From the IMG/VR virus record IMGVR_UViG_2529293040_000022: a stretch of DNA of 22,206 bases; one strand, given 5' to 3'. Positions 9,001-15,000 of the stretch are shown here, piece by piece. This DNA comes from a virus (taxonomy: Duplodnaviria; Heunggongvirae; Uroviricota; Caudoviricetes). Position 1 is the stretch's first letter. Each line of letters opens with the position of its first letter. The position numbers were made by a program.

Positions 9001-12000
9001 TTAAAAGGGCTGAAATGATAAAAGCCCCGAAAGGGGCTTCTATCAAAATCATTTACGCATTATTCCGCATGCTTAAAAGAATACATGACAGATTCGGACA
9101 AAATCAAGTGCAATGTCGCAAAAACCCTAAGCTTAGTTCACATCATCACCAAAACTTGTCACATTCTGAAAAGCAATATCGGCCTTACGCTCTTCCTGGT
9201 GGCAAATGTCAACCAGAGAATCAAGAAACGGCTTCCAATTACGCGTCCATGTCCTGACATGTAGCTCGGGTATCCGCTTCAGTACAACTTTATATACTGT
9301 GGTAGACGGTACCGTGGAAAATCCATTTCCGCTGCAACGTTCGCAGATTTTAAACACTGGCACACCACGCTCGCTTGTGGCTTTGCGGTCCAGTACCTCT
9401 CCCTTTCCACCACAACGACACCTGGCACTTATCACTCCCTTCCCTTTACATACATCGCAAACGACTGGTACAACTTCCGTTACCTCTGTCCATTTCTCCC
9501 AGTCTGACGGTCGAACAGCACGGGAGCGACTGGCCCAATATGGTGCTTTACCCCATGGGTATGAAACCTTACGAATGACCTGCTTACGGGGTGTTAGTCC
9601 GGTACCACTGCAACTATGGCATGTTACGCTGGTGTCCGCCGATCGGGAATACTCAGCAAAAGCAAACTGCGCCAGTACCAGCATACACCAGCCAAATTCA
9701 CCACCAGCTGCTTTACGCACATTCTTCGGTGCAATTTCCATCGCGTGACGCGCCAGCGCTTGGACTGCCATCTGCTCATCAGTCTTGCTGATACCGGCCT
9801 TCCCGAAGAAGGCCGCCAAGCCAAACCGTTCACGATTGCTGGTGGTACCAATAGCCGCCATAACATCGGTGCCTGTAAGACGTTCCGGAGAGGTTCCTTT
9901 CACATCGTCGCCGATATACATTCCCTGAGGACTGAAGTATTTTAGCGATGCCTCAAGCTTCATTATTCACACTCCCCAACCAGATTAAGAATAACCGCCG
10001 CGCCATTGTCTTTCATATATTCGCCCTTTCCGCTTGCCAAAAACCAACGACACACCTCCACTGCTTCAGCCCGTGTCACCGGTTTGATGGTCATCAGCAA
10101 TTTTTCAAGGTAGCGCTCGCGGTCATATACCGATTCGTGATGCTCAGAGTAACCATACTCATCGCCCTGTTCTTTAGACGCAGTGTGGCGAACACTGTAG
10201 AGCCAGTCCCAGTAAACAAACTCACGAACTACGTCTGACAATGTATGAGGCTCTGGCAGTACATCACGATAGCCATCAACATATGCACGACGCTGATCAT
10301 CAATTTCATTCATACGGATGCCATCAATTCTGCCCGCTGTCTTCTCGGCTGCAGTCCAGCCCCAGAGATGATCGTCGATAAATTTCTGGGAAGACTTGAT
10401 CACTCGCTCGGCTTCCACATCTTCGAGTGCTGCTTCATAGCTACCAAACGTAGCCCTGACTGATGTTGCTTTTTTGATATTCTCCCGGGCGATCCTGATT
10501 GCCTGTGCCGGGTTATCCATGCCGATGGTACCGAAAGCAATCTGGAAAGGATCACCACCATTCGCCAGCAGATAACGCGAATAGCGTTCCTGGGCCTCTT
10601 TTGGGGAAATTTTAATTTTCACCAGCGCAGCCTCAGCAGCATCCAGATGTGCGGGTTCGTTCAGACGGATAACCTCCAGCACCCAAAGATAAGCATCAGT
10701 CTGCTTATGCCCGGTGATTCTCCGTTGCTCTGGCAGGGGCTTGATGTTTGCGAGGGCGGAGCTGTACGCTGCCGTCGGGATGGTGAATAGTGCTTTATGT
10801 TCGTTGTTATCAGTACGCATTACGCAACCGCCTTTTTCTTATGGAAAACCAGCTCTCGAACCTGATCACCGTTCATGAGCATATTGTTGAAATCATCGTG
10901 ATCCGGCCAGTACACGCTCACGCGCTGCAGGTCATTCTTTGCCATCAGATTGGCATGAGCACATTCGCAAGCCGCAGCCAGCCCGGTGGCGCTGTTCTCG
11001 TCACGGTCGGCAAAAATAATCAGGTGCAGAACACCAGCTGGTACGCGGAACTTTTTCATAAAGCCGCTGTTAATGGTTGCCCAGGTGTTCACGTTATAAA
11101 TCTGGTGCGCTGACAGCGCTGTTTCGATGCCTTCGGCGATACCCAGAGTGCTAGCAACAGGAAACATGCGGATAGCTACAGAACGAGCGTGATCCAAATA
11201 GTTATCTTCCTGCAGGGATTTGAGGCGCTTTGCACTGCTACCGATATCTGCTTTTTTATCACCATCAAGCAGAGTCTGGTGCAGATAGCACAACTCCCCT
11301 TTATCGTCCGTAGCAAGTGAATAAAGAGACTGGAACACACTCCCGTTGTGTCTCTGCCTGGCATTGAACCGGATCGCCTCAGCAGGAAGACTGAATATTC
11401 CACGAGAATTAAGATACGCTGCGCCGGATGTACCACGCAGTGCCTCCAGTTTTGAAAACTTGCTCAATACCCGTTTGCGTAAGCTGGTGGCGCTGCTGGT
11501 TACCGGGATTTTAACCCGTTGGTAATCATTACCGATCAGGCGGTCTATTTCGGTACAAATCTCGTTAAATGGCTTCGCCTGTGTCAGGGTGACAAGTTTC
11601 ATACCATCGCCACTACCACATACACAGATCCACGTTCCTGCACCGTCGCGGTCATCAATTCGGAACTTGCCACGTGCACCGCATACCGGGCATTCACCCT
11701 TGAAGTGATTTTTTCCTGTTATCGGCGGCAAGCCGAAGTGCTCTAATATTTCAGGCCAGCGGCCTTTCGCTGCAGCTGCTGTTTTCATCTTACTGACTCA
11801 AACTGTTTATATTTTTCTGGAGTTGTTGCTTTGCTTGCATGATGCGCCAAGCCTCAGTGCCTATTGGCATCTCGCTTCGCTCACCTCGTTCCTGAGACAG
11901 AGGAATCGTTGCCTGCAATTTTTCTATAGTTCTCTGCGTCCGCTGACGGCCTTTGGCAAACCGAATCAGCTTGTGTTTGATGTAGTTACTTACTTCTGGG

Positions 12001-15000
12001 CTTATTTCCATCGGGAAACTGCTCAACCCATCAGGCCATTCACCGAATTTCTCCCTGAAAGTGTGAGCACACCATCCATCACTGACTGGACGCCCTAGCG
12101 AAGCACGCTGGCGCTGATAAAATTTGATCTGACTCCACCAGGACTGTTTCTCTGCCTTCGTCGACTGATGCTGATTTTTACCCAGCTTATTAAGTTTGCG
12201 GCTAGTGTCAGTATCAACGTCTTCACCTCGCAGCGGCTTGTGTCCACATTTCGGGCAAACATAGACGCCAGCTGGCTTCATGTAGTGGCATTGAGGGCAT
12301 TCATGTGGCAGTTTTTCGGCCCGTTCCTCAACTGCGCGGCGCGCGCTTTCCTCCATGCCATCAGACTTACCGGGAAGATCGTCGTACTCGATTGAATCCG
12401 GATAACCCAAACGGTGCACGGTGCCGCTGTGATCGAAGATAAGGCAGGACGCTTTACCCGGTGCGGTGCGCAGCCCACGCCCGAGTGCCTGCAACCAGCG
12501 AATTTCGCTTTTTGTTGGCCTGGCGTAGATGATGCAACGAACGTCACTATCGAATCCGGCTACCAGAACGCCCACACTAACGATGATTTTCGTTGCACCG
12601 GTTTCAAAGCGGTGAATGATGGTCTGGCGCTCATCTACCGGAGTGTCGGCGGTCATTACCTCAGCGTTAACACCCGCCAAGTTAAACTGGATTGTCAGAT
12701 AATTGGCGTGAGCTACGTTGACGCAGAAAGCGATGGTAGGTAGATCCCGACCATTCTCCAGCCAGTTCTGTACGATGTCGCCCACCAGCGTAGAGCCGCA
12801 CATGATTTCAGCCAGCTGTGTTTCGTTGTAATCGCGGCCGTACTCAAGCGAAGATGTGGTTTTAACACCTTTCAGATCCGGCTTAGTTGGCGCGTAAAAT
12901 TCGTATTTACTCAGATCGCCACGCTGGATTAACTCGCCGATGGTGGTCGGCTTAATCAGTCGGTCATAGTATTTGCCCAGGAACGGAGAAAACGGAGTAC
13001 CCGACAGGCCAATCACCTTTACGCCTTTGCCGCGCAGACGTTCGATATCCTTCAGGATGCGTTTTTTACGCAGGTGCGCTTCGTCGATAATCAGCAGATC
13101 GATATTTTCAGGAAAAACACGACGAATAAGCGTGTCAGCGCTGGCAATCTGAATTTTCCGGTCCGGATCGTAGTTCGGGTGATCCGCCCAGATATAACCG
13201 ATTTCATCTCCAGGTAAACCATACTGCACGAACCGATTAGCCGTCTGACCAATCAGGATGGTGTACGGAACACAGAACAGAACACGCATACCACGGCTGA
13301 CAAAACCAGCAACTATGAAGGCTGCCAGACCCGTTTTACCGCTACCTGTTGGCGAGTAAACCATGAAGGTGTCGTTTGCCTTCCAGTCACGGCGCAACAT
13401 GTTTAGCGCTCGCTCCTGTGCAAAATTCGGCGTGATTGTCAGCTGCATTGTGCTGTCCCCGCAGTGATGAGATAATAATTTTGTGATGTGGTTTTCATGG
13501 ATTCCTCCTCACATGGCTGGTGGTCTCCCCAAAGGCTGCCAGCCCCTTTCCGAATCAACTCACTTAAATTTCGTCGCACGAATAACGTCAATTCCGTTCT
13601 CGCTATATCGAAGAGGGTGCTTACCATCCCTGAGCAGGACAAAGCCTGACATCCCCTCAGGTAGCTGAGCCAGCTTCATCAACGAACGGTTGCGGGGAGA
13701 CTTCTTATCGACCTCAATGGCACACTGCTGGCCGTCTGATGATGTAACCAGGCAATCAATAAACCCTTTACGACCACCGCTAATGCTGATGCTGAAATTG
13801 CGTTGCAGATGGTATCCCTGAGACTTGATTTTTTTCTGCATCACATAATCGAAAACGACTTTGTCATCGGAGCGAATGAATTGCTCTTCCAGGAGAGTGA
13901 TTAAATTTTGCTTCAGGTCTTCACTCATACTTTTTTATCCATCTTGTACTAGCTTTCTGGTACAGCCGTTTTTTCAGGGGTATCCCCCTTTAGATCGAGA
14001 TCTACCTAACCTATGTACCCGTCTGTTGGAAAAGCCTGTTCCAGTGCTTCGCACTAACACACGGGCACTCCTCCCCCTCCCCTCCTCTCATTGAATTTTG
14101 TGCGTACTCTTTAACTAGTACAAAAATGCAATGAGATTTGGGATTCAGCCACCGGACACCTTTAAGCCCGGTACCAATCAGGAGCGCGATTGCGTTCCTG
14201 CCAGGGGCGGCTGAGTTGTATACCCCTGTAAAGCTCTGCCCTGATTTCTCACAAACAAGCGGAGCCTTGTGTTTGCTTCGTGCCTTGCTCTGTTCTCCTT
14301 GCGGAATGAAACAGGCTCAGCGTCAAAAGTGATTTCGTATACCTCCGCATATTTCAGGGCGACCTTCCGTCTCAGTGACGGAGGCAGCCCCTGTAACTGC
14401 TGCTGAATCCACTCTTCGTCTGCCTGGCAGTGCCTAGATGGCATCTCTGTCTGAACGTAATTCTGGGACATACAAGCCCTTCATCATTCGTTTTTCATAA
14501 CTGCCGCATTTGTGGCTGTGTGACTTCTACGTAACAAATCAGGGATTGCATCTTCAGGATGGGGATAAAGATCTGGTCTTAACCCATGAGGAGTAACTTT
14601 CCATTCCACAACTTCACATACACGCAAGACGAAACGAGCAGGAATTGTTCTTTTTGAAAACCATTGGTTCACAGCTTGCGGCGTAACGCCTAGATTTCGC
14701 GCTATGGCATTTTGTGCAATTAGCTCACGAAGTGCGTCGTAATCATTTCCTTTCATCGCAACCCACCAATCTAAACTTTATAAATTCAAGATTACATCAA
14801 GTTTAAATTAACATGCAAGTCCACAAAAGATCGAATACACTAAAATCAAGTAAAAATTTATCGAAACCAAGTAACCAGCAAGGATTAACAATGAAAAACT
14901 TAAAGAGCACTGAAAATCGAATTACAAAGCTGCTACAGGAGAAAGGCTGGAGCCAAGCAGAGCTGGCCCGAAAATTAGGTGTCAGCGCACAGTCCGTACA

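Follow-up and report, generated by a model that had tools for sequence, protein, structure and literature searches.

In a stretch of 22,206 nucleotides of viral DNA (Caudoviricetes; IMG/VR record IMGVR_UViG_2529293040_000022), the whole of which is called the window here, two adjoining genes on the minus strand at 10820-13448 encode a superfamily 2 (SF2) DEAH-box helicase and a zinc-ribbon/TOPRIM primase. We consider it likely, at a probability of about 0.75, that they form a replication pair that replaces the lambda genes O and P in a lambdoid-organised temperate E. coli prophage of the phi467/Fels-1 lineage, with the gene for a 122-amino-acid (aa) protein upstream of the helicase as an optional accessory or mobile gene. 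A conserved non-coding element lies upstream of the 122-aa gene. The features at the centre of the analysis are as follows.

10820-11788, minus strand: zinc-ribbon/TOPRIM primase of 322 aa, with an N-terminal zinc ribbon, DUF7146 and TOPRIM (Pfam, PHROG, BLASTP)
11790-13448, minus strand: RadD-like SF2 DEAH-box helicase of 552 aa (Pfam, PHROG, motifs)
13560-13928, minus strand: stand-alone protein of 122 aa with a predicted PD-(D/E)xK fold, PHROG 1347 (predicted structure, Foldseek)
13929-14177, minus strand: conserved structured non-coding element, candidate origin or regulatory region (conservation, folding)

The helicase carries the SF2 motifs in order, namely SPTGSGKT (Walker A, aa 32-39), DEAH (aa 122-125), SGTP (aa 149-152) and QALGRGLR (aa 320-327). 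Behind them lies a Cys4 zinc ribbon with the pattern CPQC-x10-CPKC (aa 384-401, window 12246-12299). The Pfam families ResIII (2.6e-15), Helicase_C (1.8e-10) and DEAD (9.3e-10) were each matched above the curated cut-off, and the protein falls into PHROG 16, 'DNA helicase' (1e-103). By sequence it is an SF2 protein of the DEAD/DEAH, ResIII type, for which unwinding or translocation is predicted. The RecA1/RecA2 core and the ribbon are followed by a disordered linker, a helical C-terminal domain at about aa 431-514 and a terminal helix; the C-terminal domain appears to be swapped independently of the motor. A model of the last 183 residues (pLDDT, the predicted local distance difference test, 80) contained the zinc ribbon, the disordered linker, a three-helix domain and the terminal helix. 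Foldseek with this model returned zinc-ribbon matches only and no structural match for the helical domain. The nearest solved relative is RadD (6jde, E 2e-20), in an alignment that covers RecA2 only. RadD is also the best NCBIfam model (NF053632), at 93.8 bits against an equivalog cut-off of 720, which was not reached. The helicase is RadD-like in architecture only. As a side observation, the helicase of one viral contig (L086) is 99% identical to that of the window in the core and 80% identical in the C-terminal region (aa 415-552, window 11790-12206).

The primase contains CPVC-x18-CVC at aa 33-57, EGIETA at aa 219-224 and FADRDEN at aa 259-265, with DRD at 261-263. It matched Zn_Ribbon_Prim (3.7e-14), DUF7146 (3.3e-13) and Toprim_3 (1.8e-14) in Pfam and PHROG 510, 'DNA primase', at 3e-130. 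A sequence search of the PDB with the primase gave nothing useful. With BLASTP it aligned with aa 8-262 of the alpha protein of phage P4 (E 4e-20); AEGIETAL of the window protein pairs with AEGYATAL of alpha, the EGYATA-type motif, and ADRD is conserved. On this homology the protein is a counterpart of the P4 alpha primase domain, and primer synthesis is predicted. A preliminary description of the window had placed three open reading frames (ORFs) here, all on the minus strand, had read two of them as a DEAH helicase with a C-terminal Cys4 ribbon and a zinc-ribbon/TOPRIM primase, and had seen in them a non-lambda replication system in a mosaic lambdoid genome with an intergenic region at 13929-14177. 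The ORFs and the intergenic region are where it put them, the domain searches bear out both enzymes, and its main interpretation is correct, for a kind of module that was already known.

The surroundings of the pair are lambdoid. The features on its two sides are:

14813-15580, plus strand: CI-like repressor with HTH_3 and Peptidase_S24 (domain searches)
14484-14756, minus strand: Cro/YdaS-like helix-turn-helix (HTH) protein (domain searches)
14178-14471, minus strand: 97-aa protein, PHROG 852 (2.5e-41), function not annotated, in the position of lambda cII
9133-9963: Q antiterminator (Pfam/PHROG and phi467 annotation)

The Cro/YdaS-like gene and the repressor gene are divergently arranged, and the gene order runs repressor, cro, 97-aa gene, element, 122-aa gene, helicase, primase, a 285-aa gene and Q. 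The lysis genes for holin, endolysin and Rz are present as well, and the regulatory and late genes of the window, lambdoid in kind, agree with the mosaic genome of the preliminary description. Homologues of lambda O and P were not found in the window (best tblastn E = 1.0), and none of the ORFs tested matched Phage_rep_O/P in Pfam. No other replication gene was found in the window or in the annotation of phi467. Some Shiga toxin (Stx) phages without O and P, of the non-lambdoid kind, carry 'eru' genes instead (Llarena et al. 2021, PMC8044961); in phage TL-2011c the unit Eru1 consists of the gene for an SF2 DEAH helicase of 506 aa and, after it, the gene for a Toprim protein of 323 aa (PMC8044961).

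Megablast with the block 9900-14900 gave an identity of 99.8% to Escherichia phage phi467, which is the Stx2f phage of strain EF467, and of about 86% to Salmonella phage Fels-1. Of 5426 complete E. coli genomes, 169 carry the block as a prophage. Over 7957-20628 the window matches phi467 at 99.5%, with the lysis genes at 93%. In phi467 the stx2f A and B genes and the genes for tRNA-Gly and tRNA-Thr sit between Q and holin (phi467 stretch 5517-8198); neither the toxin genes nor the two tRNA genes were found in the window. In the counterpart of this interval, window 7636-9132, there remains only a 287-aa ORF (8087-8950, plus strand) within an AT-rich island with a GC content of about 0.36. The window was considered as the Stx2f phage itself, which was rejected because the stx genes and tRNAs are absent; it is an stx-negative sibling of phi467. 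The paper on phi467 reports cro, cI and related genes as absent (PMC5189129). Contrary to that statement, the Cro/YdaS-like and CI-like proteins were identified by domain search.

We infer that the pair replicates the phage, that initiation occurs at the element and that the host polymerase is used; the first of these comes from the position of the pair and from its homology to P4 alpha. After loss of the repressor, rightward early transcription would run through cro and the 97-aa gene into the element at 13929-14177. Initiation would take place at or near the element, the phage helicase would unwind the DNA and the phage primase would make primers, from which a host polymerase would carry out the synthesis. 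A host polymerase is proposed because neither the window ORFs that were looked at nor the annotation of phi467 showed a polymerase gene.

The constant and the variable parts of the module were separated by a comparison of 80 helicase-encoding loci, one genome per species. The 97-aa family lies upstream of the helicase in 76 of the 80, more regularly than any other upstream partner. Of these 76 loci, 59 have a tract of the form G4-8-N1-3-G4-8 between the 97-aa gene and the helicase. Across these sequences the conserved unit is made up of the 97-aa gene, an element with G-tract and GATC sites, the helicase and the primase. The PD-(D/E)xK (122-aa) family, on the other hand, is upstream of the helicase at only 12 of the 80 loci, and about 40 have no ORF of at least 60 aa between the 97-aa gene and the helicase. 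Elsewhere this slot holds I-HmuI-like endonucleases with NUMOD4 and HNH_3 (viral contigs L085, L086 and L099; genomes L145, L149, L165 and L173), RepL/HTH_36-like winged-helix proteins, a 270-300-aa family without a Pfam match or a family of about 100 aa whose function is not annotated. In three viral contigs a 206-aa NUMOD4/HNH_3 endonuclease replaces the 122-aa gene, the 97-aa protein and the helicase core being 98-99% identical to those of the window, and in one viral contig the helicase follows directly after the element. The slot between element and helicase thus appears to behave as a hot spot for endonuclease genes. Because it is present at only 12 of 80 loci and is replaced in a near-identical backbone, the 122-aa protein is to be seen as an optional tenant of a variable slot and probably not as part of the core; its gene may encode an accessory factor or be a mobile endonuclease gene. 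The preliminary description had included it in the module, of which it is not a constant member.

The 17 loci with the 97-aa gene and no G-tract carry other slot genes, several of them of RepL-like initiator type. The genes are those of the RepL/HTH_36-like winged-helix proteins (144-182 aa) or of the 270-300-aa family (loci lacking the tract: L132, L139, L140, L144, L149-L151, L153, L162, L167, L175-L178, L180), and may represent alternative initiator cassettes for the same helicase-primase pair. The presence of RepL/HTH_36-like proteins in the slot of these loci fits with origin specificity being determined at this position. The 97-aa protein itself has no Pfam or NCBIfam family, and its relatives, in more than 479 clusters, are all named 'hypothetical'. 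The gene is also present, unannotated, in TL-2011c (about 1664-1955 of the stretch compared, L003). This protein may be the true partner of the module in specificity or regulation. The preliminary description had missed this gene and had only guessed at the element, the other constant partner of the helicase.

The 122-aa protein belongs to PHROG 1347, whose function is not annotated, and contains the motifs from which a VRR-NUC-like nuclease had been proposed, GFID (aa 55-58) and IEVDKK (aa 71-76). The motifs are present, and the nuclease-like fold is supported by a model; the VRR-NUC label fails. The protein had no match in Pfam (E <= 0.01) or NCBIfam, and a PDB sequence search with the protein alone gave nothing useful. 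An AlphaFold (AF2) model from 18 homologues (pLDDT 85.6; predicted template modelling score, pTM, 0.82) has a core of alpha-beta-beta-beta-alpha-beta order, restriction-endonuclease-like, with acidic residues on beta2 and beta3. Foldseek with this model against the PDB returned almost exclusively PD-(D/E)xK nucleases, among them Bax1, McrC, NucS/EndoMS, Card1, XisH and AF1548; the first VRR_NUC structure in the list stood at rank 27 (E 0.02). A profile search of 1.84 billion representatives gathered 221 relatives. Conserved family-wide are G38, G55, D58, E72, D74, P78, R79, K/R81, S82, K85 and R100. E72 and D74 are invariant whereas K75 and K76 vary freely (K/R/N/Y/S/A), and the motif of the family reads in these sequences as D...ExD...PRxKSxxKL, not as ExK. 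The family profile reached AF1548 in the PDB at 9e-6, with D58 and E72 paired with the catalytic D/E of AF1548. Weak Pfam matches were counted at E <= 1 among 78 stand-alone members of the family, which matched 39 Pfam families in all. MTES_1575 was matched by 30 of the 78 members, Mrr_cat by 14, Hjc by 10 and BamHI by 5, and VRR_NUC was not among the 25 families most often matched. An assignment to VRR_NUC (PF08774) was rejected in view of the missing Pfam match, the motif Lys that is not conserved and the Foldseek rank of 27. The modelled fold and the weak profile matches indicate instead the MTES_1575/Mrr/Hjc/AF1548 branch within the PD-(D/E)xK superfamily.

The catalytic competence of the 122-aa protein is uncertain because Asn44 occupies, in its subfamily, the position of the beta1 Glu that most of the wider family keeps, because the Lys is replaced by Asp, and because natural D58G variants exist. 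Homologues from different genera share 55-88% identity with the protein, and many positions do not vary. Among 144 representatives of the family there are 55 whose domain is C-terminal to winged helix-turn-helix (wHTH) domains of replication-initiator type, the N-terminal partners being Phage_rep_O, DUF1376, HTH_36, Lin1244_N and DUF6291. By analogy with these fusions, an initiation role of the domain is possible. That it might be a hidden part of lambda O was rejected, as the family profile showed no similarity to the lambda O C-terminus. A nuclease-fold domain that forms an uncurated family, often fused to DNA-binding domains of replication initiators, goes beyond the literature searched. 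The D58G variants (GFIGCLV) occur in four otherwise near-identical viral contigs and may be a sign of decay or of a putative catalytic Asp that can be dispensed with.

The element at 13929-14177 is built from the following parts, all read on the minus strand.

14151-14172: hairpin
14086-14136: long AT-rich hairpin, adjoining the G-tract and holding the first GTAC-N10-GTAC (14104-14121)
14068-14089: purine/G-tract run, with the bipartite GGGGAGGGGG at 14073-14082
14043-14053: GTGCGAAGCAC
14021-14042: GGAACAGGCTTTTCCAACAGAC
13999-14019: GGTACATAGGTTAGGTAGATC, core block
13991-14004: palindrome TAGATCTCGATCTA with two GATC sites (13993-14002)
13946-13963: second GTAC-N10-GTAC, preceded by an A-run

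The element is better conserved than the coding DNA beside it. It is about 95% identical to its counterpart in Fels-1, as compared with about 86% for the whole block, and its core is recognisable in TL-2011c and in loci whose small protein is only 57% identical. The core is also conserved in a set of 19 diverged loci and in one of 59, which comprises 59 distinct elements and spans many genera. Each of the 41 viral contigs that contain the 19-mer TACATAGGTTAGGTAGATC has it upstream of this helicase module. Conservation is found in short sequence blocks (the G-tract, CCAA, AGATC) rather than in covarying stems. GGGGAGGGGG is the sole bipartite G-tract in the whole window, and such tracts resemble mitochondrial CSB II. 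Of 61 G-tract elements, 44 have a four-run G-quadruplex motif on the sense strand and none has one on the antisense strand, and GATC is about 3-fold enriched (2.1 per approximately 187 nt, 0.73 expected). The two GTAC-N10-GTAC sites, the only exact ones in the window, bracket the element core at 158 bp from centre to centre, and the element also contains a 9-nt perfect long-range inverted repeat. Its folding is far better than that of shuffled sequences, with z = -4.96 for the sense and -3.97 for the antisense strand. The element is a plausible replication origin, a reading that is reasonable because of its conservation, the bipartite G-tract, the GATC clustering and the AT-rich hairpin. In the literature searched, none of the phages that replicate in this way has a mapped origin, and the element provides a concrete fragment of about 250 bp as a candidate.

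Several other readings of parts of the element were considered. The GTAC-N10-GTAC palindromes were taken as possible binding sites of the 122-aa protein, as suggested by the differing flanks in TL-2011c and in the HNH-carrying contigs. This was rejected as a general rule since loci without the small gene (L103, L114) keep GTAC-N10-GTAC pairs. The type of flanking site agreed between nearest neighbours in 40 of 45 cases for the 97-aa protein versus 32-33 of 45 for the helicase, with L086 as a counter-example. A long-range RNA stem proposed by RNAalifold was rejected as evidence of RNA structure, as its covariation rests on one clade. Rfam gave no meaningful match, at the gathering threshold over the whole window or in a permissive search of 13400-14250. 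A promoter and terminator scan gave counts no higher than in shuffled sequences and no convincing promoter. The hairpin TTGTACTAGCTTTCTGGTACAG (13944-13965), followed by CCGTTTTTTC through 13975, was observed as a weak terminator-like signal for the plus strand; as an intrinsic terminator it would stop antisense transcripts that span the beginning of the 122-aa gene, a setting that would resemble that of an oop-like antisense RNA. This hairpin and A-run at 13944-13975 are conserved even in loci without the small gene.

A number of observations weigh against a replication pair that fires from this element. A repeat search found no iterons or direct-repeat family in 13925-14180 and turned up just the two GTAC-N10-GTAC palindromes and hairpins, no DnaA boxes were found, and the P4 type-1 ori repeat TGTTCACC is absent from the region, its single match at 155-162 being a chance one. 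RadD-type SF2 helicases are, to our knowledge, not classical replicative helicases. The function of Eru1 was assigned by position and homology only (PMC8044961), and the literature searched holds no experiments on this module and no biochemistry of Eru1-type proteins. The fusions of the 122-aa domain to initiator wHTH domains in other phages suggest that a genuine initiation role can exist, and the element could serve transcriptional or RNA-level regulation rather than replication. This last reading, in which 13929-14177 is a control region of the early right operon (a terminator or antiterminator, a processing site or an antisense RNA target), is one to be taken seriously, although we do not favour it. 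The position matches the nutR/tR1/cII-oop signals of lambda, both strands fold far better than shuffles, the hairpin at 13944-13965 with its T-run can be read as a terminator on the plus strand, the clades differ by two neighbouring compensatory changes in long-range complementary arms, and the lack of iterons suits it as well. However, the covariation amounts to a single evolutionary event, no Rfam family is matched and the conservation lies in sequence blocks, and both the GATC clustering and the RepL-like initiator cassettes that replace the element elsewhere point to an origin. If the element is an origin, it may dispense with a protein-iteron initiator, a speculation that we regard as quite improbable in its full form. 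Early rightward transcription would cross the strand-specific bipartite G-tract (G4-7-N1-3-G4-7) and leave a stable R-loop, which a RadD/UvsW-like SF2 helicase and a P4-type primase would turn into a fork. The GATC sites would couple the origin to Dam/SeqA, the 97-aa protein would act as a specificity or regulatory factor, and the slot would attract genes of nicking endonucleases (PD-(D/E)xK or HNH) that exploit or assist the site.

The place of the 122-aa protein was weighed in the same way. It might be an integral third component, an initiator or nickase at the element that opens the DNA for the SF2 helicase. The gene is directly upstream of the helicase, a 40%-identical protein, gp29, has the same position in TL-2011c, initiator-type wHTH domains precede the domain in the representatives counted above, and D58, E72 and D74 are nearly invariant family-wide; moreover, Bax1, the best Foldseek match, is the nuclease partner of the SF2 helicase XPB. 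We nevertheless find this unlikely, given the small share of helicase loci with the gene, the many empty slots, the HNH endonuclease that stands in its stead beside a 97-aa protein and helicase core of 98-99% identity, the D58G variants, Asn44 for the beta1 Glu of the wider family, and GTAC-N10-GTAC sites in loci that lack the gene. The gene could also be a free-standing endonuclease of homing, selfish or accessory kind, placed in an insertion hot spot by a conserved target. This is compatible with a replication pair, and we entertain it tentatively. It would account for the sporadic distribution, for the I-HmuI-like NUMOD4/HNH_3 homing endonucleases that occupy the slot elsewhere and the swap in a near-identical backbone, for variants that look like decay, and for a PD-(D/E)xK fold with conserved acidic residues. 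It sits less well with 55-88% identity across genera and many invariant positions, with the initiator-domain fusions and with the absent catalytic Lys, and its cleavage site and homing event are hypothetical. Finally, helicase and primase might work in repair, anti-defence or superinfection exclusion, with replication left to the host or to genes outside the window. RadD, the nearest characterised relative of the helicase, is a repair protein, and biochemical data on Eru1-type proteins are lacking from the literature searched. Yet in many temperate phages the pair has a fixed location, flanked by the immunity region and Q, where O and P would otherwise stand, it includes a P4-alpha-type primase, and neither the window nor the phi467 annotation offers another replication gene, all of which makes such a role very improbable. 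A helicase-primase pair for phage replication, with the 122-aa gene as an optional neighbour, is the reading we retain.

Two further small genes accompany the pair:

13439-13498, minus strand: 19-codon mini-ORF MKTTSQNYYLITAGTAQCS (direct reading)
9963-10820, minus strand: 285-aa protein, PHROG 6204 (3e-183), function not annotated; its ends overlap the primase and Q genes

The mini-ORF lies behind a strong Shine-Dalgarno sequence, GAGGAGG, and its stop codon overlaps the ATG of the helicase (ATGCAGCTGA). It is conserved in the phi467/Fels-1 lineage only, where the gap ahead of the helicase is 111-112 nt, and is absent at gaps of 33-40 or 207-233 nt. The mini-ORF is probably a translational-coupling leader. 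Upstream of it, two alternative hairpins (GGCTGgCAGCC and GGCTGG...CCAGCC) can form, and the combination suggests a device for translational coupling or attenuation. The 285-aa protein has no Pfam or NCBIfam match. Its gene accompanies the module in phi467 and Fels-1, whereas NinB/NinG/NinH are found instead in TL-2011c.

The components of the module can each be set beside a characterised protein. Like the primase, P4 alpha has an N-terminal zinc ribbon and a TOPRIM domain with an EGYATA-type motif. The alpha protein goes on to a superfamily 3 (SF3) helicase and a C-terminal ori-binding domain, whereas the window primase stops at 322 aa and the helicase is a separate SF2 protein encoded upstream of it. 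In RadD (YejH) of E. coli, as in the helicase, the SF2 core precedes a Cys4 zinc ribbon and a C-terminal domain; the window helicase differs in being phage-encoded beside a primase and in a C-terminal helical domain without a structural match. The 122-aa protein resembles the Mrr/MTES_1575/Hjc/AF1548 nucleases in its predicted fold core and in D58/E72, which match the D/E of AF1548. In contrast to these nucleases, it has the invariant D74 in place of the ExK Lys, which resembles the BamHI-like ExE variant, and its family has a PRxKSxxKL helix of its own; no curated family reaches threshold.

As a whole, the module is by sequence a diverged homologue of the published Eru1 unit and so of a type already known. 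The primase family has members in 163 phage records, for the most part those of Eru1-type Stx2a phages, and usually adjoins a DEAD/DEAH helicase. The amino-acid identity with TL-2011c is 67% for the helicase (gp30, Eru1A), 57% for the primase (gp31, Eru1B) and 40% for the 122-aa protein (gp29, which is not discussed in the Eru1 paper). In both phages a protein of about 125 aa, an SF2 DEAH helicase and a Toprim primase lie between cro and Q, adjacent homologues of eru1A and eru1B take the place of O and P, and an unannotated 97-aa gene and a G-tract with the GGTACATAGGTTAGGTAGATC core are found upstream. The two differ in several respects. The window falls below the BLASTn limit used for Eru1 (>80% identity and coverage to eru1A-C, PMC8044961), and megablast of 9900-14900 recovered no TL-2011c-type phage. 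The gene after the primase encodes the unrelated 285-aa protein, not eru1C (DUF1367/NinB), and the element of TL-2011c is flanked by another inverted repeat in place of GTAC-N10-GTAC.

The closest relatives are Fels-1 and phi467. Fels-1 has the same gene block (STM0899-STM0902), in which the two products are called 'putative helicase' and 'putative bacteriophage DNA primase' and a similarity to P4 is mentioned. The block is shared with phi467 at near identity, and phi467 differs from the window in its stx2f and two tRNA genes. The paper on phi467 does not discuss replication (PMC5189129), and phi467 is absent from the data sets used for Eru typing, including the later typing of Eru1-13. The helicase-primase pair in itself adds little to what is known, as its type is familiar from Stx phages and its annotation in Fels-1 goes back a long time. 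The phi467/Fels-1 lineage is worth recording as a diverged relative of Eru1 because phi467 represents a Stx2f phage lineage missing from the published typing. What goes beyond the literature searched is the make-up of the conserved unit that these phages appear to share, with the small nuclease-fold gene as optional cargo in a slot that also collects homing endonucleases.

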